Virus record (IMG/VR): IMGVR_UViG_2526164690_000027 | Span: 1 to 7,515 of that record | DNA length: 7,515 bases | From: a virus | Taxonomy: Duplodnaviria > Heunggongvirae > Uroviricota > Caudoviricetes | Direction: 5' to 3' (one strand) | Shown: in pieces, positions 1 through 7,515 of the stretch | Numbering within the stretch: position 1 is the first letter of the stretch | Layout: each line of letters opens with the position of its first letter | The notes under the pieces: model-generated | Told to the model about the DNA's origin: nothing | Databases searched by the model: none | The model's input: the letters and a program-made list of their open reading frames with translations, nothing else | Position numbers and translations under genes: made by a program

Positions 1-1
1 A

Positions 2-1591
2 TACGATGCTCCGGATCCGCGCATTAAACAGCTGGCGCGCCGCAGTACAGTGACGCCGGGCGGGGCTGCCTGCAGATATAACGATATTATTCCGGCTGAC
101 CACTGTCTGCATGATGTGCAGGATATGAGTACGCTGAATCATCCGAAGGCAGACCTGAGCAAAGGGCAGTACGGCTGTGTCGGCCAGGGCTTACATATTG
201 CCAAAAAACTGCTTCCGTATATCCCGAATAACGCGGGGATCCTGCTGGTACCATGCTGTCGTGGTGGTTCTGCATTCACCCAGGGCGCTGAGGGGACATT
301 CAGTGCGGACACGGGGGCTAGCCATGATTCGGCACGCTGGGGTGTGGGTAAACCGTTATATCAGGACCTGATTGCGCGCACCAAAGCTGCATTACAGAAG
401 AACCCGAAAAATGTGTTGCTGGCGGTGTGCTGGATGCAGGGAGAGTTTGACATGAGCGCCGCCACCCACGCACAGCAACCTGCGCTGTTTACAGCCATGC
501 TGACACAGTTTCGTGCTGACCTCTCCGTGTTTAACGCGCAGTGCCATGGTGGCAGTGCTGCAGATGTGCCGTGGATTTGTGGTGACACGACGTATTACTG
601 GAAAAATACATACGCTACCCAGTACGACACCGTGTACGGCGGGTATAAAAACAGGGAGAGTGAGGGCGTTTATTTTGTGCCCTTCATGACAGACGGTAAC
701 GGTGTCAATACCGCCACTAACGCGCCGGCAGAAGATCCGGATATTCCGGCATCAGGATATTACGGTGCGGCATCGAGAACGAATGGAAACCAGGTATCAT
801 CAAACCGCCCGACACATTTCAGTTCATGGGCGCGCAGGAGCATTATTCCGGATCGTCTGGCAACCGCTATTCTGAACGCAGCCGGGCGCACCTCAGCCTT
901 CATCAGTGGTAAGGCACCGGAAATCAAACCCTCGCCCGGCGGCAACACGCCATCGGGTCCGTCTGCAGATACGTCCGTTCGCACAATCTCCCTGCTGCCG
1001 GCAGCCGGAGAGGCTGCTGCGCAGGGCTGGAGCATTAAGGATGGCGGAATTCAGTTGTCGGGTGGTGTATTTAAGATCGCCAAGCAGAGCAATAAAACCT
1101 GGTCCCTGACGCATCCGGTGGATGACGCAATTACCCTGCTGACACAGGGCGGCAGACTGACCTGTAAGTTCCGCCTGTCAGGCGCACTGACCAACAATCA
1201 GTTCGGGCTGGGGATTTATCTGTATACGGATGCTCCCGTTCCTGATGGTGTGGCGATGACGGGTACCGGTAATCCGTTCCTGATGTCGTACTTCACTCAG
1301 ACCACTGACGGCAGAGTGAATCTGATGCATCACAGGAAAGCCGGAAACACGAAGCTGGGGGAGTTCGGCGATTACGGTAACGACTGGCAGACGCTGGAGC
1401 TGGTGTTCACCGCCGGCAGTGCCACGGTTACTCCGAAACTGAATGGAGTGGCTGGCCCGGCATTCCAGGTTATAAAAGACAGTCTGACACTGGGACTGAA
1501 TGCGCTGACGCTGACGGATGTTACAAAAAATGCAGCGTATGGCGTTGAGATAGAAAGTCTGGTGCTGGAGATAAATGCACCGGCAGCATAA
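2..1591 (+). CDS. 5'-truncated phage moron esterase, SASA/SGNH-like (NanS-p-like putative sialate O-acetylesterase) with a C-terminal beta-rich domain
   Basis: Frame is open from position 2 to TAA at 1589-1591 with no in-window upstream stop; the GTG at 50 is only the first in-window start, so the gene continues upstream. Translation contains ...VPCCRGGSAF... and ...CWMQGEFD..., resembling the GG and W-x-QGE-x-D blocks of sialate O-acetylesterase (SASA) domains. A Gly/Thr/Asn-rich C-terminal domain follows. Position directly upstream of the holin matches where NanS-p-type esterases sit in EHEC prophages. Functional call is inference from memory. Confidence 0.55.
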   Translation, partial: YDAPDPRIKQLARRSTVTPGGAACRYNDIIPADHCLHDVQDMSTLNHPKADLSKGQYGCVGQGLHIAKKLLPYIPNNAGILLVPCCRGGSAFTQGAEGTFSADTGASHDSARWGVGKPLYQDLIARTKAALQKNPKNVLLAVCWMQGEFDMSAATHAQQPALFTAMLTQFRADLSVFNAQCHGGSAADVPWICGDTTYYWKNTYATQYDTVYGGYKNRESEGVYFVPFMTDGNGVNTATNAPAEDPDIPASGYYGAASRTNGNQVSSNRPTHFSSWARRSIIPDRLATAILNAAGRTSAFISGKAPEIKPSPGGNTPSGPSADTSVRTISLLPAAGEAAAQGWSIKDGGIQLSGGVFKIAKQSNKTWSLTHPVDDAITLLTQGGRLTCKFRLSGALTNNQFGLGIYLYTDAPVPDGVAMTGTGNPFLMSYFTQTTDGRVNLMHHRKAGNTKLGEFGDYGNDWQTLELVFTAGSATVTPKLNGVAGPAFQVIKDSLTLGLNALTLTDVTKNAAYGVEIESLVLEINAPAA

Positions 1592-1599
1592 TAAAAAAA

Positions 1600-1633
1600 G
1601 AGCCAGCGACTGACCTGAAAGAAGACGCTGGCT
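1600..1633. repeat. Stem-loop element copy 1 (8-bp stem AGCCAGCG / CGCTGGCT, 17-nt loop), A-tract on 5' side
   Basis: AGCCAGCG at 1601-1608 is the exact reverse complement of CGCTGGCT at 1626-1633. Preceded by AAAAAAAG, so on the minus strand the hairpin is followed by a T-run. Lies 9 bp after the esterase stop. Confidence 0.3.
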
Positions 1634-1747
1634 AAAAGGCCTTATATGTTTGTAGAGACTTATTTTTCACAGACAGCAATGATGCCTGTCAATATATTAT
1701 CAATATGCGGATTGTTTCAGTTACAGATGCTTTATTAAGGAAAAAAC

Positions 1748-1782
1748 AGCCAGCACTGACTTTCGGTGGAGAGGTGCTGGCT
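1748..1782. repeat. Stem-loop element copy 2 (9-bp stem AGCCAGCAC / GTGCTGGCT, 17-nt loop), paralogous to copy 1
   Basis: AGCCAGCAC at 1748-1756 pairs with GTGCTGGCT at 1774-1782. Same arm core (AGCCAGC...GCTGGCT) and ACTGAC at the start of the loop as copy 1. Preceded by GGAAAAAAC. Confidence 0.3.
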
Positions 1783-1956
1783 CAGAAGGATAGTTGGATT
1801 TCACATGATACTTATGCCTGGCGGTATATTTTCTGACAGACAGTGACGGGTGTTGTCAAGATATTGTGTCATTTATAACCTGAATCAGGGGAGGCCGGAA
1901 TGTTATCTGGCATTTTTAGCAGAGCCTGAATGCCATAATCACGGCTCCCGGCGTTG

Positions 1957-1995
1957 GCCGTCAGTGGGTGACACTGGCGGCTTTTTTGTTTTTCT
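1957..1995 (+). terminator. Rho-independent terminator immediately upstream of the holin (tR'-like position)
   Basis: GC-rich 10-bp stem: GCCGTCAGTG at 1957-1966 pairs with CACTGGCGGC at 1972-1981 (one G.U pair), 5-nt loop GGTGA, followed by TTTTTTGTTTTTCTTT at 1982-1997. Holin start codon is ~40 bp downstream. Confidence 0.6.
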
Positions 1996-2037
1996 TTACT
2001 TTCATTTTCTGTCGGCGGTGACGGAGACATACATCAG

Positions 2038-2244
2038 ATGGAAAAAATCACAACAGGTGTGTCATACACCACGTCAGCGGTGGGGACGGGATACTGGTTA
2101 CTGCAGCTGCTGGACAAAGTCTCTCCGTCCCAGTGGGTGGCAATAGGTGTGCTGGGAAGTCTGCTGTTTGGCCTGCTGACGTATCTGACTAACCTGTATT
2201 TCAAAATCAGAGAGGACCGTCGTAAGGTGGCGCGGGGAGAGTAG
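2038..2244 (+). CDS. S: Class II holin / pinholin (phage 21 S21-like)
   Basis: 68-aa ORF with two predicted TM segments: weakly hydrophobic TMD1 [15 protein letters not shown] and TMD2 [18 protein letters not shown]. Charged C-terminus [13 protein letters not shown]. Strong resemblance to the S21 pinholin from memory. Located after a terminator and paired with a SAR endolysin. Confidence 0.85.
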
Positions 2245-2499
2245 TCGATGAATAAACAATACGAACTGGTTGTAAAATGAATATTTCTAACTGAAAAAAC
2301 GTTCCATGAGGTAAGAAAAGGTCACAGGCAATCAATAACAGGACGTGATGAAAGACCCTTGCATTTGTGCGCTTTCTCTTTAGATAGCAGCAGATACTGA
2401 AAATCTGAGTTGTCGGGGAGTCAGGGATACAGCTGTGCAAGAGTTGGTCATTGTGATTCCATTGAAATCCTGTATGCCATGAAGGGCAGGATTTTATGG

Positions 2500-2814
2500 C
2501 TACCTGAGCTTTGGTGATAGTAAGTTGAAAATTCGCATTTTTTGCTGACATGCGTAACGAGAATCCCATAAACAGGGAGGACTTAATTCTTCATTAACCC
2601 ATGCGTTGATATTATGTTTCAGCCGTTGAAGCATCAGCGGTGTTAATGTTGTGGTAATAATATCCAGCGTTTTATGTGAGATCTTACCGTAAGGGTCTGC
2701 AAGAATGCTGCTTGTTGCTTCGTTATTATCTGCCATCAGAAGAAGTAACTCTGATTTAACGTTTTCTGTCATTAGTTGTAAAAATCTTCTGCGCAAACTT
2801 TCTTTACTGTTCAT
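2500..2814 (-). CDS. Hypothetical 104-aa protein encoded antisense to the lysis genes within an AT-rich insert (possibly YdfR/DUF1327-like by position; unverified)
   Basis: A 104-codon open frame on the minus strand inside a visibly AT-rich segment, where stop codons should be frequent, so chance ORFs of this length are unlikely. Hydrophilic, helix-like composition. Start ATG (plus 2812-2814) has only a weak SD-like GAAG upstream and an in-frame TAA immediately 5', so the start cannot extend further. In E. coli K-12 Qin, ydfR occupies the equivalent holin-endolysin slot (recalled, not checked). Confidence 0.4.
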   Translation of the reverse strand: MNSKESLRRRFLQLMTENVKSELLLLMADNNEATSSILADPYGKISHKTLDIITTTLTPLMLQRLKHNINAWVNEELSPPCLWDSRYACQQKMRIFNLLSPKLR

Positions 2815-2931
2815 TTATATGGCTTCATTTGTTGTAATCTGCTGCGTCTCAAGGGATATGTTTATGAGAGCGACCATGAGTGTTTGATTATATACCTAAC
2901 ATATCAAGGGATTAGAAATCGATAAATCCCC

Positions 2932-3465
2932 ATGAACGAAAAAATAAAATACGGCCTGTCGGCTGCCGTTCTGGCGCTGATTGGTGCAGGTGCTTCTGCG
3001 CCTGAAATCCTCGACCAGTTTCTGGATGAAAAGGAAGGTAACCACACCACGGCATACCGTGATGGTGCGGGGATCTGGACCATCTGCCGTGGTGCCATTC
3101 TGGTGGATGGTAAGCCTGTTATTCCTGGCATGAAGCTGTCAAAGGAAAAATGCGACCGGGTTAATGCCATCGAACGTGACAAGGCGCTGGCATGGGTGGA
3201 GAAAAACATCCGGGTGCCGCTGACCGAACCCCAGAAAGCGGGGATCGCGTCATTCTGTCCGTACAACATTGGCCCCGGTAAGTGCTTCCCGTCGACGTTT
3301 TATAAACGAATTAATGCAGGCGATCGAAAAGGTGCCTGTGAGGCGATTCGCTGGTGGATTAAGGACGGTGGCAGAGACTGCCGTATTCGTTCAAACAACT
3401 GCTACGGTCAGGTATCCCGTCGTGACCAGGAGAGCGCGCTGGCGTGCTGGGGTATCGACAGATAA
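2932..3465 (+). CDS. R: SAR endolysin, T4-lysozyme-like muramidase (GH24), phage 21 R21 / P1 Lyz type
   Basis: 177-aa ORF. N-terminal Gly/Ala-rich signal-anchor-release segment YGLSAAVLALIGAGASAP. Catalytic E-x8-D-x5-T triad in EGNHTTAYRDGAGIWT. Downstream blocks (...INAGDRKGACEAIRWW..., ...ESALACWG) match the R21 family from memory. No convincing SD upstream of the ATG. Confidence 0.9.
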   Translation: MNEKIKYGLSAAVLALIGAGASAPEILDQFLDEKEGNHTTAYRDGAGIWTICRGAILVDGKPVIPGMKLSKEKCDRVNAIERDKALAWVEKNIRVPLTEPQKAGIASFCPYNIGPGKCFPSTFYKRINAGDRKGACEAIRWWIKDGGRDCRIRSNNCYGQVSRRDQESALACWGIDR

Positions 3466-3559
3466 GCAGAATATTTTGCTGAAAAATAAGGCATGGCCAC
3501 GCGGGCGGATAACATGAAATCCTGCGAACTGGCAAAATGTAAGTGAATAAAAGTAAAAA

Positions 3560-3594
3560 CCCCGTTTGTTGGCAGCAAGCGGGGTTTTGTTTTT
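3560..3594 (+). terminator. Rho-independent terminator downstream of the endolysin
   Basis: CCCCGTTTG at 3560-3568 pairs with CAAGCGGGG at 3576-3584 (9 bp, one G.U pair), 7-nt loop, followed by TTTTGTTTTT at 3585-3594. An A-tract (3555-3559) on the 5' side makes it potentially bidirectional. Confidence 0.55.
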
Positions 3595-3659
3595 ATGGCA
3601 GTAAGCTATGGGAGGCTGCCTTGATTGATTTTAGCAAACTGATTAGGGAGTTGCGACTC

Positions 3660-3755
3660 ATGATTAGTCAATTACCAAACTGGAAATTTTTGCTGGTCTG
3701 GAGCATCCCTTTTTTATGGGTAGTATCCCAGTTAATTGTGGCAATTAAGGGGTAG
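3660..3755 (+). CDS. Small hydrophobic protein, 31 aa (MISQLPNWKFLLVWSIPFLWVVSQLIVAIKG), single predicted TM helix
   Basis: ATG at 3660 is preceded by SD AGGGAG (3645-3650) with a 9-nt spacer. Stop TAG at 3753-3755 lies 2 nt before the next ORF start. This is the 3' part of track ORF 3543..3755, whose 5' part overlaps the terminator hairpin. Confidence 0.35.
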   Translation: MISQLPNWKFLLVWSIPFLWVVSQLIVAIKG

Positions 3756-3757
3756 CT

Positions 3758-3889
3758 ATGTCAGACAAACTCATAACGCCGGCAAAGGTCCTGTGTGTGA
3801 TTGTCGGTATTTCATTTTCACTAATGCTGGTTGCTCTTTTTCTGTCCCTCGCCTGGGTGATGTTGTCTTCGTCGGGGCTGCTGGGGTGA
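3758..3889 (+). CDS. Small membrane protein, 43 aa (MSDKLITPAKVLCVIVGISFSLMLVALFLSLAWVMLSSSGLLG)
   Basis: ATG at 3758 is preceded by SD AAGGGG (3747-3752) with a 5-nt spacer. Below the ORF-track length cut-off. One long hydrophobic segment. The N-terminal TM segment resembles the Rz TM segment at both protein (KVLCVIV vs RVLCVVIIV) and nucleotide level. Confidence 0.4.
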   Translation: MSDKLITPAKVLCVIVGISFSLMLVALFLSLAWVMLSSSGLLG

Positions 3890-3891
3890 CA

Positions 3892-4008
3892 GTGACTGAT
3901 GACATCAGCAGAGCGCTGGCTTTTGCTATTAAGTGGGTGGCTGTTGGTATTGCTGTGTCTCCGATGCTGTATGGGCTGGCAAAACTGGTCATTGCGCTGA
4001 AATCGTGA
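3892..4008 (+). CDS. Small hydrophobic protein, ~38-40 aa (..TDDISRALAFAIKWVAVGIAVSPMLYGLAKLVIALKS); start ambiguous (GTG 3886 overlapping the upstream stop as GTGA, or GTG 3892)
   Basis: Frame matches the 3' part of track ORF 3736..4008. GGGG at 3882-3885 can serve as SD for GTG 3892. Paralogous to the next small ORF (shared motif RA[LM]AFAI[KR]xVA). Confidence 0.3.
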   Translation: MTDDISRALAFAIKWVAVGIAVSPMLYGLAKLVIALKS

Positions 4009-4019
4009 ACTTTAAAAAG

Positions 4020-4106
4020 ATGAGTGCTGAACTTATTCGGGCAATGGCATTTGCCATTCGTATTGTGGCCATTGCTGTTCTGGTCTGGGCAATCCGTTGG
4101 TGGTGA
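4020..4106 (+). CDS. Small hydrophobic protein, 28 aa ([28 protein letters not shown]), paralog of the preceding small ORF
   Basis: ATG at 4020; stop TGA at 4104-4106 lies 1 nt before the Rz ATG at 4108. No clear SD. About 9/20 identical plus conservative residues against ORF 3892-4008 over the core. Confidence 0.3.
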
Positions 4107-4107
4107 T

Positions 4108-4602
4108 ATGAACCGTGTTCTGTGTGTGGTGATTATTGTCCTGCTGGTAGCCTGTGGTGTGCTTAGTCTGGGGCTGAATCATTACCGCGATAACGCCATC
4201 ACCTACAAAGCGCAGCGCGATAAAAAAGCCAGAGAGCTGGAGCTGGCAAACGCAACTATTACTGATATGCAGGTGCGCCAGCGCGATGTTGCTGCGCTCG
4301 ATGCAAAATACTCGAGGGAATTAGCCGATGCGAGAGCTGAAAATGAAACTCTGCGCGCTGATGTTGCCGCTGGTCGTAAGCGCCTGCGGATCAACGCCAC
4401 CTGCCCCGGTACCGTGCGTGAAGCCACCGGCACCTCCGGCGTGGATAATGCAACCGGCCCCCGACTGGCAGACACCGCTGAACGGGATTATTTCATCCTC
4501 AGAGAACGGTTGATGACAATGCAGAAGCAGGTGGAAGGGGCACAGGACTATATCCGCACTCAGTGTACTAAGCAGGCTTTTTATTATCCGGAGGATGTAT
4601 GA
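4108..4602 (+). CDS. Rz: Rz i-spanin (inner-membrane spanin subunit)
   Basis: Translation from ATG 4108 ([39 protein letters not shown]...[23 protein letters not shown]...) aligns closely with lambda Rz from memory: N-terminal TMD, coiled-coil periplasmic domain. The in-frame upstream ATG at 4024 would add a non-homologous 28-aa extension that overlaps the small ORF, so it is rejected. Confidence 0.9.
4328..4513 (+). CDS. Rz1: Rz1 o-spanin (outer-membrane lipoprotein spanin subunit), embedded in +1 frame within Rz
   Basis: 61-aa [64 protein letters not shown]. Lipobox VSAC, proline-rich mature part. Close match to lambda Rz1 from memory. SD GAGGGA at 4314-4319. Confidence 0.85.
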
Positions 4603-4823
4603 AGAAATTACAGGTAACGGTAAAACCTTTTCAGGGAACAATTCCGTTCCGTGTTTTGCAACATGGCCGTGTTCTGCTTGAAGAGGTGTTCAGAGGTAAA
4701 TGCACTGAATGTTATTCACGAACATATGAAGTGAATGCCACGCATGAAGAATTCACCGTTGAGTGTGTGATGAATACTGATAAATGCCGAATGGTATCCG
4801 CTGAATTACAGCCAGTGTGTTGA
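4599..4823 (+). CDS. Hypothetical 74-aa Cys-rich protein (CxxC plus three further Cys), translationally coupled to Rz
   Basis: ATG at 4599 overlaps the Rz stop (ATGA). GGAGGA at 4590-4595 is directly upstream (short spacer). Five Cys including C-T-E-C. No recognisable homology from memory. Confidence 0.5.
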
Positions 4824-5191
4824 GCGACCTTATTATCCATGCGCGGTATTGTCGCCGTATTCCTGCATTAACAGAGACCGCAGCCCGACAGGGAGACTCC
4901 TCTGCGAGAGTGTGCGGGGATAATCAAAAACGATACACACCGGGGTTTACCGCGTAAACGGAGCGCGGCGTTCTCCCCTCATGGTCGCCCGTCCGGTGCG
5001 ATGGTGGAAGAAACTGGAATCTGTTCAATAAAAAAACTGCCGTGTTGGAGTCACAGCAGTAATGTACTGATTGGGTAGAAGATTATTATTGTTATGCTTT
5101 ATTTTTATTCTATATGGCTGATTATTTCAATTCGGAATTAATACAGCTAATGTCTGTGAGTTTTTATAAATTCAGCAATATAAAGAAATAG

Positions 5192-5419
5192 TTATATGAA
5201 CAGCCATCGCAGAGCATACTGTGTATCATTCTTTTTTATAGTCAACTGACGGGCATATTTTATGTCTGCTGCCAGCTCCCGGCGGCAAGATTCAATGACC
5301 CACGCAGAAAAATTTTCTGAACCTTTCTGGTCAAGAGCGATGTTAATTTGTTCAATCATCTGGTTTGGAAATCGGATGTTGCGGGTTGTTGTTCTGCGGG
5401 GCCGGTTTTTCGATGACAT
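5192..5419 (-). CDS. Small DNA-binding-like protein, YlcI-like (DUF3950 / ribbon-helix-helix-like), 75 aa, divergent from the HNH gene
   Basis: Minus-strand ORF with SD-like AGAGGA ~7 nt upstream of the ATG (plus 5417-5419). N-terminal basic stretch then RNIRFPNQMIEQINIALDQKG...FSAWVIESCRREL, recalled as the YlcI-type small protein found next to terminase genes in E. coli cryptic prophages. Family assignment is from memory. Confidence 0.55.
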   Translation of the reverse strand: MSSKNRPRRTTTRNIRFPNQMIEQINIALDQKGSENFSAWVIESCRRELAADIKYARQLTIKKNDTQYALRWLFI

Positions 5420-5460
5420 TTTCTTTCCTCTGGTGACAAGCTATATGGCGAGGATTTTAC

Positions 5461-5826
5461 ATGGCTGTGCTTCGTACGTTACCGGGCAGAATCAAAACTC
5501 TGAATACCCGGCGGGTGAATGTCCTGAAGGGTGAACAGCGTCGGGTCAGTGGCAGTGCACGTGTTTCCCTCAAGCGTCGTATCTGGCTGAGGGATGCCGG
5601 GCAGTGCTGTCTCTGTGGTCGTGTGGTTGACCTCTGTGACAGTGAACTCGATCACCGAATTGCACTTCAGTTCGGTGGTGGTAATGAGGAGACGAATCTC
5701 TGGACGCTCTGTACCGAATGCCATCGACAAAAGTCTGCTCGTGAAGTGGCGGGTGGTATGCCGGACCCGACGCTGCCGGAGGTGTCCGGAGGTCATGGCA
5801 GGGCAGACGATATCATCGGACTGTGA
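5461..5826 (+). CDS. HNH endonuclease, terminase-associated (HK97 gp74-like)
   Basis: 121-aa ORF with SD AGGA 6 nt upstream. Classic HNH architecture: C-C-L-C ... D-H ... N-L-W ... C-T-E-C-H. Located immediately upstream of the cos-like region and terS, as in HK97-like phages. Confidence 0.85.
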   Translation: MAVLRTLPGRIKTLNTRRVNVLKGEQRRVSGSARVSLKRRIWLRDAGQCCLCGRVVDLCDSELDHRIALQFGGGNEETNLWTLCTECHRQKSAREVAGGMPDPTLPEVSGGHGRADDIIGL

Positions 5827-5900
5827 CCCGCCCCGGGGGGGGGATCATCCGGCGAAAAAAACGATCCGCCCCGGACACCGCCCCCCGTCTCATGCAGAAG
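5827..5900. other. GC-rich segment with a G9 homopolymer; candidate cos cleavage (cosN-like) region
   Basis: CCCGCCCCGGGGGGGGG at 5828-5843, then GATCATCCGGCG, an A7 run, and CGATCCGCCCCGGACACCGCCCCCCG. Lies between the HNH and terS genes, where cos sits in HK97-like phages. The exact nick sites cannot be determined from sequence alone. Confidence 0.25.
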
Positions 5901-5917
5901 AAAAAATTCCTGTTCAG

Positions 5918-5939
5918 GCCAGTTAACATGTTAACTGGC
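5918..5939. repeat. 22-bp perfect palindrome GCCAGTTAACATGTTAACTGGC (followed by 8-bp palindrome GCCCGGGC at 5941-5948)
   Basis: Sequence 5918-5939 equals its own reverse complement (verified base by base). The flanking pair 5917/5940 breaks the symmetry. Confidence 0.9.
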
Positions 5940-6044
5940 TGCCCGGGCATTTTTCGGTTTTTATCTTTATTATTCAGTTTGTTGTGCGAAAAAAATGTTA
6001 ACTGGCTTTTTCAGCAAATGTTAACCAGGCAGCAGTTAACATTT
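5918..6044. promoter_or_regulatory. Array of GTTAAC-centred half-sites (consensus CAGTTAACAT); putative terminase small-subunit binding region (cosB-like) or other dimeric-protein operator
   Basis: Five GTTAAC cores at 5922, 5930, 5997, 6020 and 6035. ATGTTAACTGGC at 5995-6006 is identical to the right half of the palindrome. ATGTTAACCAGGC at 6018-6030 and GCAGTTAACAT at 6032-6042 form an inverted pair with a 9-bp spacer. An AT-rich spacer (5950-5994) separates the palindrome from the other sites. Confidence 0.4.
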
Positions 6045-6116
6045 GCGGCATGAGACGCCGGGAAAAATGGGCTGAACCATACCCGGCTGAGTGCGTTATG
6101 GACCCGGGAGGAGGCT

Positions 6117-6680
6117 GTGCTGACAACGCAAAAACGAAAATTTGCGCTGGCGCTCATGTCCGGGAAAAACAAAACAGCGTCAGCCATTGCCGCTGGTTAT
6201 TCGGCGAAGACCGCCAGGGTTAAAGGCTCGCAGCTGGCAAAAGATCCGGAGGTGCTTGCGTTTATAGCCCGTAAACAATGCGAGACGGTGGAGGTGGATG
6301 AGGTTCCTGTTTACCGGCAGAAAAAATCAGAGCAGGAGGATAAACCCCGTCGCCGTGAGGCGGCTGCAATACCACAGCCGGACGAAAACAATCCGGAGAT
6401 GCCACCGTCCGCGGTGATGTCTCCTGGTATTGAATATATGGAGGATGGTCTTCCCGATCCGGTGAAAGCGATGGGGCGTCTTCTGGTGGAGAACATTAAT
6501 ACCGACCCCAGGCTGGCGCTGGATGCGGCTTATAAGCTGGCGCAGTTCACGCACCATAAAAAAGGGGATGCCGGTAAAAAATCGGCAAAAGGTGACGCGG
6601 CGAAAAAAGCGGCTAACCGTTTTGCGGTGCCACCACCACCCCGCCTGGTGGTGAATAATGATAATGAGGGCAACGAATGA
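6117..6680 (+). CDS. terS: Terminase small subunit (Terminase_2-like, N-terminal HTH DNA-binding domain)
   Basis: GTG start at 6117 with SD GGAGG at 6107-6111. N-terminus ...KRKFALALMSGKNKTASAIAAGYSAKTARVKGSQLAKDPEV... matches the conserved small-terminase DNA-binding motif (AGYS..TA...GS.L) from memory. Stop overlaps the terL start (ATGA at 6677-6680). Confidence 0.85.
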   Translation: MLTTQKRKFALALMSGKNKTASAIAAGYSAKTARVKGSQLAKDPEVLAFIARKQCETVEVDEVPVYRQKKSEQEDKPRRREAAAIPQPDENNPEMPPSAVMSPGIEYMEDGLPDPVKAMGRLLVENINTDPRLALDAAYKLAQFTHHKKGDAGKKSAKGDAAKKAANRFAVPPPPRLVVNNDNEGNE

Positions 6681-7515
6681 TACCTGTGTGGAGCACGGCC
6701 TGCCCGGACTGGGCAGAGCGCCTGAAAAAGGGGCTGTCGATTATTCCGGCTCCGATTTATCCGGAGCAGGCTGCACATGCACTGGCGATTTTTAAACAAC
6801 TGCGGATTGTGGATGCACCGGGTAGCCCGACATTCGGGGAGTCCTGTGCACCGTGGGTGTTTGACCTGGTGGCGGCCCTGTTTGGCTCCTACGATGCGCA
6901 GACCGGTGTTCGCCATATCAAGGAAGTGTTTATCCTTATCCCCAAGAAAAACAGTAAGTCCACGCTGGCCGCGGGGATCATGATGACGGCGCTGTTACTG
7001 AACTGGCGGCAGGCGGCGGGCTACACCATTCTGGCCCCGACCGTGGAGGTGGCGGCTAACGCCTTCAACCCTGCCAGGGATATGGTACGACGGGACGATG
7101 ATCTGGATGACCTCTGTCAGGTGCAGACACATATCCGGACCATCACCCATCGGGTGACGGACACCACCCTGAAGGTGGTGGCAGCCGATCCGAATACGGT
7201 GTCCGGTATCAAGTCCGTGGGGACACTGATTGATGAACTGTGGCTGTTTGGCAAGCAGTACAAGGCGGAAGACATGCTACGTGAAGCCATCGGCGGGCTT
7301 GCCTCCCGTCCGGAAGGGTTTGTGGTGTATACGACCACCCAGTCGAATGAAACCGCCCGCCGGGGTGTTCAGACAGAAACTGCAGTATGCCCGGGATGTC
7401 CGTGACGGCAAAATTCATGATCCGCACTTTCTGCCGGTGATTTTTGAGCATCCTCCTGAAATGGTGGAAAGCGGGGCTCATCTGCTGATGGAAACCTCGC
7501 CATGGTTAACCCGAA
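6677..7515 (+). pseudogene. terL: Terminase large subunit, N-terminal ATPase domain; reading frame broken by an apparent +1 frameshift near 7349-7353; continues in the 0-frame to the window end (3'-partial)
   Basis: Frame-2 ORF 6677-7405 (242 aa) contains a deviant Walker A ...ILIPKKNSKST... but is far too short for a TerL. Its last 17 codons (TARRGVQTETAVCPGCP) look non-protein-like. The 0-frame is open from 7230 to the window end and reads protein-like from 7353 (PPAGVFRQKLQYARDVRDGKIHDPHFLPVIFEHPPEMVESGAHLLMETSPWLT). Junction is at the GAAA tract 7349-7352. Could be a real mutation or a sequencing error. Confidence 0.55.

Follow-up and report, generated by a model that had tools for sequence, protein, structure and literature searches.

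The island between the holin and endolysin genes

The DNA analysed here, hereafter the window, is a stretch of 7,515 nucleotides corresponding to positions 1 to 7,515 of IMG/VR virus record IMGVR_UViG_2526164690_000027 (Caudoviricetes), and it represents the late region of an Escherichia coli lambdoid, Stx-phage-like prophage. The holin gene S and the endolysin gene R are separated in it by an AT-rich island. The only conserved open reading frame (ORF) of this island encodes 104 amino acids on the minus strand (2500-2814), antisense to the late operon, and is termed ORF104. The GC content of the island is 38.7%, compared with 50.8% in the window, 53.1% in S and 54.1% in R, a value at or below which only 0.6% of all 687-bp windows lie. 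ORF104 itself has a GC content of 38.1%, with 36% at third codon positions, where S and R reach 64% and 58%, respectively. The original prediction, made from the letters of the window, had described an AT-rich island of ~690 bp with an antisense 104-aa ORF and had proposed a comparison of composition with the flanking lysis genes; these figures confirm the island and set ORF104 apart from both flanks. Two further ORFs overlap the island, one of 60 aa on the plus strand (2705-2887) and one of 120 aa on the minus strand (2207-2569). A search of the whole window against Rfam returned no RNA family. The coordinates of all features are collected in Table 1.

ORF104 is a conserved gene

Orthologues of ORF104 are WP_000138558.1, ECs_1097 of strain Sakai and EDL933_RS06280 of strain EDL933, and orf6 of Stx2 phage 86 is a homologue. 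The protein matches the profile phrog_1853 with E=3.5e-47, in which residues 1-102 align with profile positions 57-158 of 159, the same positions that are covered by phage 86 orf6. A set of 5.8 billion proteins contains 16 clusters of homologues at 90% identity, and 1.8 billion proteins yielded 20 representatives at 50% identity, one of which is spurious, a HEAT-repeat protein. Nearly all family members are 104-106 aa long, 33 residues are invariant in homologues of 49-100% identity, and full-length homologues of 37-80% identity keep the frame. Thirty-two distinct coding sequences were extracted from 99 loci. Their ratio of nonsynonymous to synonymous substitution rates (dN/dS) against the window copy is 0.08-0.33, the median over 160 pairs is 0.27, and 80, 62 and 98 of 103 codon columns vary at the first, second and third positions, respectively. 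The antisense ORF is thus a real gene, as had been proposed, and is under purifying selection.

The length of the product differs among annotations. The product given for WP_000138558.1 by the Prokaryotic Genome Annotation Pipeline (PGAP) has 90 aa and starts at 2772 (L001 4463-4735), and the older EDL933 annotation contains a 79-aa version. The start at 2814, which yields 104 aa, is probably better than the PGAP start at 2772 because the 14 codons upstream of 2772 are conserved at the amino-acid level.

The members of this very small family occur only in lambdoid prophages, mostly those of E. coli, and there always in the lysis region, beside four holin types. A relation to DUF1327/YdfR (PF07041), for which a specific test had been suggested, is not supported. 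ORF104 gave no Pfam match at E<=0.01 or even at E<=10, while proteins from the same slot, used as a positive control, score 145-152 bits on PF07041 (gathering score 25 bits). No match was found in NCBIfam, nor in the PADLOC-DB defence hidden Markov models (HMMs) at E<=0.1, a scan of one genome per species retrieved no relative, and no description of ORF104 or its family was found in the literature.

The AlphaFold2 (AF2) model of ORF104, with a predicted local distance difference test (pLDDT) score of 84.7, suggests a soluble bundle of five helices. The protein is ~12 kDa, its isoelectric point ranges from 4.6 to 9.3 across the family, and no transmembrane segment, signal peptide or lipobox was detected in it. 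A profile search of the PDB returned only designed helical proteins (E=0.03) and no informative structural match. Since the charge varies across the family and signatures of catalysis, membrane association or DNA binding were not found, we infer that ORF104 most likely works by binding another protein.

Promoter and transcription in the lysogen

In EDL933, Cappable-seq identified a gene-specific transcription start site (TSS) at 1272853 in 8 of 8 conditions, with mean relative read scores of 31-72 (PMC10469882, Tables S5-S7). The conditions comprise exponential and stationary phase, each in lysogeny broth (LB), minimal, acid and salt, and all are uninduced; a second TSS at 1272864 was present in two of them, stationary LB and stationary acid (PMC10469882). 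The EDL933 copy of the ORF is 99.7% identical to that of the window, and a single base distinguishes the two spacers. By way of the EDL933 sequence, the two sites correspond to 2891 and 2880 on the minus strand of the window, and they fall in the 2815-2931 spacer in which ORF104 had been predicted to have a promoter of its own. The expression in the prophage state that was envisaged at the same time is likewise borne out at the level of transcription, by a minus-strand TSS in uninduced lysogen cultures under all eight conditions.

The elements of the two putative promoters, P1 for the main and P2 for the secondary TSS, were read from the sequence upstream of the mapped TSSs and are situated at canonical spacing (Table 1). 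The -35 of P1 is 5 bp, and its TSS 41 bp, from the start codon of R; therefore, P1 fires head-on into the late operon. A standard -35/-10 consensus scan of the spacer returned no promoter, because the -35 is weak and the -10 is of the extended type, and P1 was recognised only from the published TSS. Comparison of the spacers reveals divergence around the blocks GGATTTAT(C/A) and (T/G)GATATGT(T/C), which themselves are conserved in most of the family's E. coli lineages. TATGTT is kept in all E. coli lineages except L067/L071, in which TATAAT is present. The G at -14 is lost in L072 (GGCTATGTT), and the promoter blocks are absent from the distant L017/L014 contexts.

Weaker TSSs in or near ORF104 were also mapped from EDL933, at the equivalents of 2656, 2836 and 2848 on the plus strand and 2673 and 2746 on the minus strand (PMC10469882). 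The one at 2656, on the late strand, was seen in 5 of 8 conditions with scores of 2-4, and the remaining weak TSSs were each seen in a single condition. Weak starts of this kind are typical of spurious promoters in AT-rich DNA.

We also note a GC-rich hairpin followed by a T-run in L004 (2900-2919), as well as in L087, L088, L017 and L014, ~14 nt downstream of TATGTT. The leader hairpin of the phage 86 and 12E129 lineages lies ~50 nt upstream of the ORF104 homologue, is terminator-like and is situated at the 5' end of the predicted leader; it is possibly an attenuator. The window type is without this leader hairpin and carries the TATAAT box at that place instead.

A probable remnant of a YdfR-family gene

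The usual neighbour of ORF104 homologues is a forward-strand gene of 184-287 aa in tail-to-tail orientation, which was observed in 14 of the 19 non-window-type loci of a viral-contig scan and in all but one of the other relatives fetched. The arrangement is found in Stx2 phage 86 (orf5/orf6), Stx2_12E129, L005-L012 and L067-L098, plus distant contexts upstream of other holin types. The neighbour is the long form of the YdfR family, in which a DUF1327 or coiled-coil N-terminus is joined to a conserved ~120-aa C-terminal domain ending in YLKGRI. The family is modular: its members consist either of DUF1327 alone (103-114 aa) or of DUF1327 or a coiled coil, a variable middle and the C-terminal domain (184-333 aa; L018, L101-L106). 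For YdfR of K-12, which is of the short DUF1327 type, binding to the catalytic half of RNase E and co-purification with RNA have been reported (PMC13232886); this report concerns the N-terminal domain of the neighbour in some lineages, not ORF104. For the long partner, the AF2 model (pLDDT 51) is too poor for a structure search, a profile search of the PDB was uninformative, and PADLOC gave only a non-significant PbeC stretch (E=0.018).

The premise that pinholin and SAR (signal-arrest-release) endolysin genes are normally adjacent has to be revised accordingly for this phage group, as a forward DUF1327/YdfR-family gene fills the slot in most related Stx-type phages. Nor does the island appear to be a simple insert into an adjacent S-R pair, since its left 255 bp (2245-2499) are, by sequence comparison, probably the wreck of the long YdfR-family gene that normally fills the slot, with a large internal deletion. 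A relic start lies 4 nt after the S stop, the usual spacing in relatives, and its ten codons are identical to the N-terminus of the P0093, P0104 and PhiR12_2 protein; taken alone, this match is weak (tblastn, 80% over 10 aa, E=0.19) and is supported by position. Further downstream, 2321-2452 matches the 12E129 protein (tblastn, 39% over 41 aa, E=6e-4) with two in-frame stops. When all six frames of the window are searched with a profile HMM of 24 family members, the best match is this segment, collinear at HMM positions 142-185 with E=0.003-0.005, and the C-terminal KGRI of the family follows at 2482-2493 in a different frame. Among window-type variants the remnant diverges about twice as fast as ORF104. 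PGAP places no annotation in it, and DNA searches with it retrieved only copies of at least 90% identity and no intact ancestor.

Table 1. Features of the island and of the surrounding window, in window coordinates
Feature	Position	Strand	Basis or remarks
ORF104, 104 aa, predicted soluble all-helical protein, orphan family PHROG 1853	2500-2814	-	HMM, homologues, dN/dS, AF2 model
5' untranslated region of ORF104, 77 nt	2815-2891	-	from main TSS
Putative promoter P1	2898-2926	-	-35-like TTTATC 2926-2921, 17-nt spacer, TG 2906-2905, -10 TATGTT 2903-2898, +1 2891
Putative secondary promoter P2	2880-2892	-	consensus -10 TATAAT 2892-2887, +1 2880
AT-rich island	2245-2931		between S and R, 687 bp
Probable relic YdfR-family start	2249-2281	+	MNKQYELVVK then stop; 4 nt after S stop
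Probable decayed YdfR-family 3' part (C-terminal domain)	2321-2493	+	stops and frameshift; tblastn, HMM
NanS-p-type sialate esterase	window start, truncated there		first in late-region order
Holin S, class II, phage-21-type	2038-2244	+	Pfam PF04971, E=1.3e-32; PGAP "class II holin family protein" at identical locus
Endolysin R, phage lysozyme	2932-3465	+	PF00959, E=7.6e-24; PGAP "lysozyme"
Small ORFs, then Rz/Rz1	3' of R		Rz: Pfam PF03245
YlcI/YnfO (DUF3950), 75 aa	5192-5419	-	antisense, between Rz and HNH/terminase genes
HNH endonuclease and terminase subunits	last in window order

Distribution and separability of ORF104 and its neighbour

The stretch from S to R is 100% identical in many chromosomes of enterohaemorrhagic E. 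coli (EHEC). The window-type island, scored as a place that covers at least 80% of the holin-endolysin stretch, occurs in 624 of 5426 complete E. coli genomes, whereas no record of the phage collection covers at least 80% of this stretch. Carriers include O157:H7 Sakai (ECs_1097, prophage Sp4), EDL933 (EDL933_RS06280, CP-933M) and strains labelled O103, O111 and O145. With the window-type ORF104 as query, 802 places were found in 674 genomes, about one in eight of the complete E. coli genomes. Among 675 records matching this query, 629 are at least 95% identical, which is the type seen with the decayed neighbour, and 46 are diverged at 60-90% identity. The 12E129-type query, representing a second subtype, yielded 133 places in 96 genomes. 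The C-terminal domain of the YdfR family is found at 970 places in 787 of the 5426 genomes, mostly without ORF104.

Each of the two genes can thus be found by itself. ORF104 is absent from the Stx2_95, P0121 and P0097 loci, in which 36-42 bp separate the long YdfR-family gene from R; in the 12E129, phage 86 and P0053 loci, ORF104 lies between the YdfR-family gene and R. Arrangements of ORF104 without the neighbour are represented by the window type, by L072/73/76 and, beside a different holin, by L066, and they arose more than once. Variants of the window type allow the two parts of the island to be compared directly: L062, L063 and L065 have the same 687-bp architecture with no indels, and relative to the window ORF104 is 2.5-3.8% diverged, with 6-7 of 8-12 changes at third positions, compared with 5.9-7.8% for the remnant and 8.5-12% for the spacer. 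ORF104 is the least diverged of the three and its changes are mostly at third positions; therefore, it was still constrained after the neighbour had died. Separability and constraint together favour an autonomous add-on gene over an obligate antidote.

In Sakai Sp4 (L100 13366-16376) and EDL933 CP-933M (L110 25696-28706), the S-ORF104-R-Rz block is inverted relative to Q and terminase. The inverted O157:H7 block is flanked by the insertion sequences (IS) IS629/IS1203 and ISEc8 and adjoins the virulence regulator gene pchA (PerC family). ORF104 is still transcribed in the rearranged O157:H7 prophage. Other cargo is found at comparable places. PhiR12_2 carries a different antisense gene in the same slot (L019 1643-1903, minus strand), which encodes an acidic protein of 86 aa and is convergent with a gene for a 169-aa DUF1327 protein. 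This protein showed no detectable homology to ORF104 (hhalign probability 0.3%), and its label "DUF1823" was discarded as being below the Pfam threshold. The holin-to-endolysin slot seems to collect antisense cargo repeatedly. A Tad2-like (PF11195) gene is located directly after Rz in L104-L106 (4092-4613), and HicA/HicB lie between Q and the YdfR-family gene in L017 (6195-6833).

Interpretation and alternative readings

We consider it likely that ORF104 is a moron which is transcribed in the lysogen from within the lysis cassette, next to what is left of a long YdfR-family gene. The island would then contain one live gene, ORF104, and one dead gene. ORF104 would be accessory, optional and AT-rich, with a promoter of its own that points against the Q-dependent late operon, and the EDL933 data suggest that this promoter is active in uninduced lysogens under every tested condition. 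Its protein would act in the lysogen, or early, and alone rather than as an obligate partner of the neighbour, while upon induction ORF104 would be silenced by late transcription that runs into it head-on from S towards R. The moron-like behaviour put forward by the original prediction fits what was found: ORF104 is inserted between genes that are otherwise adjacent, namely the YdfR-family gene and R in Stx2_95, P0121 and P0097; the EDL933 TSS at window 2891 points to its own promoter, active in the lysogen; and its composition is unlike that of its flanks. In the E. coli holin-to-endolysin slots, the GC content of the homologues is 34-41%, compared with 45-50% for the long YdfR-family neighbour and 50-54% for S and R across loci; in the distant L014/L017 contexts it is 45-48%.

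Several observations weigh against this interpretation. The TSS data are from EDL933 and not from the window strain, and the lysis block of EDL933 is inverted and IS-flanked. A weak Shine-Dalgarno sequence, GAAG, precedes the ATG of the window copy by 9 nt, and ORF104 has no entry in the supplements of the Sakai RIBOseq study, in which only short genes are tabulated (PMC5597208), or of the EDL933 overlapping-gene study (PMC9927249). No minus-strand intrinsic terminator was found between 2500 and 2245, that is, from ORF104 to S, and the fold of this segment is no more stable than that of shuffled sequences (z=0.14). The assignment of the remnant depends on weak similarity (E ~1e-3 within the window) together with position.

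The frequent proximity of the long YdfR-family gene raises the question of whether ORF104 is its cognate antagonist, immunity- or antitoxin-like, directed at the C-terminal domain, with the window copy being an orphan immunity gene against incoming relatives. In most relatives fetched, the ORF104 homologue is tail-to-tail with the gene for this domain, often with an overlap of 20-33 bp; the pair travels jointly to different contexts, upstream of other holin types (L014-L017), and ORF104 subtypes match particular subtypes of the domain. An antidote that is retained after loss of the toxin is the familiar pattern of orphan immunity genes, and the retention of ORF104 after decay of its partner would fit it. 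Nevertheless, we regard the antagonist as unlikely. The domain often occurs where ORF104 does not (970 places in 787 genomes versus 133 places for the 12E129-type ORF104), the 629 of 675 window-type records with at least 95% identity belong to the type with the decayed neighbour, and the long gene is followed directly by R in P0121, P0097 and Stx2_95. Toxin-antitoxin and immunity operons do not typically consist of convergent genes, and obligate co-occurrence with co-transcription was not found for the two genes; a toxin/antidote pairing is unlikely because they usually occur apart. A related and still more doubtful proposal is that ORF104 and the long YdfR-family protein form a two-state switch in the lysis cassette, in which the forward protein would be made only late, under the control of Q, while ORF104 would be produced exclusively in the lysogen, from its constitutive head-on promoter, and would neutralise any forward protein that is stray or incoming.

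Antisense transcription itself may matter instead of the protein, through interference or through an antisense RNA to the 3' end of S; in the lysogen, either would keep leaky lysis-gene expression down and tune the timing of lysis. A constitutive TSS 41 bp, and a -35 only 5 bp, from the R start codon, a stretch free of intrinsic terminators between the ORF104 stop and S, and an orientation convergent with the holin that is kept in all contexts are consistent with such a role. Purifying selection on the amino-acid sequence over deep divergence is not explained by an RNA role alone, although the two roles are not mutually exclusive. In addition, the GC skew suggests that Rho would probably stop the minus-strand RNA, which is untranslated and rich in C, short of S, and the terminator-like leader hairpin of the 12E129-type lineages argues against a need for long read-through. 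Antisense transcription as the sole function is therefore improbable in our estimate. The most sceptical view, that ORF104 is a decaying relic or a chance ORF and that the real gene is the 60-aa plus-strand ORF (ECs1098 in the old Sakai annotation) or none, finds some footing in the annotation of ECs1098, with a low signal in LB of 24 (RNA) and 14 (ribosome footprints) reads per kilobase per million mapped reads (RPKM), and in the existence of disrupted ORF104 variants (P0001, P0013, P0016; L074-76). This view is already largely refuted and we give it very little credence: the full frame of ORF104 is kept down to 37% identity with dN/dS well below 1, whereas codon 12 of the 60-aa ORF is a stop in L062, L063 and L065, most lineages either lack this ORF or have it in shifted form, and the 120-aa minus-strand ORF has a stop in L065. 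The possibility that the 60-aa ORF is the actual gene, which had been raised as a refutation of the moron, is thereby refuted itself.

Comparison with known systems

The closest counterpart is orf6 of phage 86 (BAF34038.1, PHROG 1853), which shares with ORF104 the family, the length, the slot and the antisense orientation between S and R at 53% identity. The two loci differ in the neighbour, which is intact in phage 86 (orf5, 268 aa, DUF1327 plus C-terminal domain) and reduced to ~255 bp of debris in the window. ORF104 also resembles lambda-type morons, especially bor, in being an optional late-region gene with its own sigma-70 promoter, transcription in the lysogen, distinct composition and an orientation opposite to late transcription. 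The bor gene lies beside the lysis genes, runs antisense to the late operon and is expressed in lysogens, and Bor is an exported lipoprotein with a serum-resistance phenotype. In contrast to Bor, ORF104 is without signal peptide, lipobox or transmembrane segment, and no terminator of its own was found.

YdfR/DUF1327 of the Qin prophage (PF07041) occupies the same holin-to-endolysin slot, and the relic at 2249-2281 corresponds to the start of such a gene. ORF104 is nevertheless not a DUF1327 protein and lies on the opposite strand, and nothing links it to RNase E activity. The flanks of the island are of the same type as the lysis cassette of phage 21 (S21 pinholin, R21 SAR endolysin and Rz/Rz1; PF04971, PF00959 and PF03245), with the difference that S and R are separated by accessory genes in the window and in most Stx-type relatives. 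Type II toxin-antitoxin systems and orphan immunity genes share with ORF104 a small, cytoplasmic product, a usual position beside a particular partner and retention after the partner has decayed. This is in contrast to the convergent orientation of ORF104 and its occurrence mostly apart from the partner, and no toxin-antitoxin match was obtained for it in PADLOC or Pfam.

Other features of the window

The N-terminus of R is Gly/Ala-rich (YGLSAAVLALIGAGASA) and looks SAR-like on inspection. A terminator-like hairpin with an 11-bp stem and a T-run is present at 1956-1990 on the plus strand, ~50 nt upstream of the holin gene; its stem has a CAGTG/CACTG core and is similar to the leader hairpin that other lineages carry upstream of their ORF104 homologues. 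Between endolysin and Rz, a second terminator-like hairpin with a 15-bp stem is located at 3556-3588, and several small hydrophobic ORFs of 43-90 aa are found at 3543-4008 on the plus strand, where PGAP annotates three tiny hypothetical proteins. The DUF3950 gene is situated in the AT-richest part of the window (5001-5300, GC 0.30-0.35) and looks like a second moron.

Significance

The core of the original prediction, an independently expressed antisense moron, is supported, and its interpretation as a whole is partly supported. For annotation, the conservation supports extending the reference product from 90 to 104 aa. ORF104 has neither a fold match nor recognisable relatives beyond its own family and is easy to test; if it has no measurable effect, it would be one more uncharacterised moron. 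If the two-state switch were true, orphan ORF104 genes would represent a new kind of prophage immunity against a late function of related phages, superinfecting or co-resident, with possible consequences for lysis timing and Shiga-toxin release in EHEC, where such prophages are numerous. ORF104 is widespread in EHEC and constitutively transcribed in the lysogen, and it is situated inside the operon that controls the lysis of lambdoid prophages.

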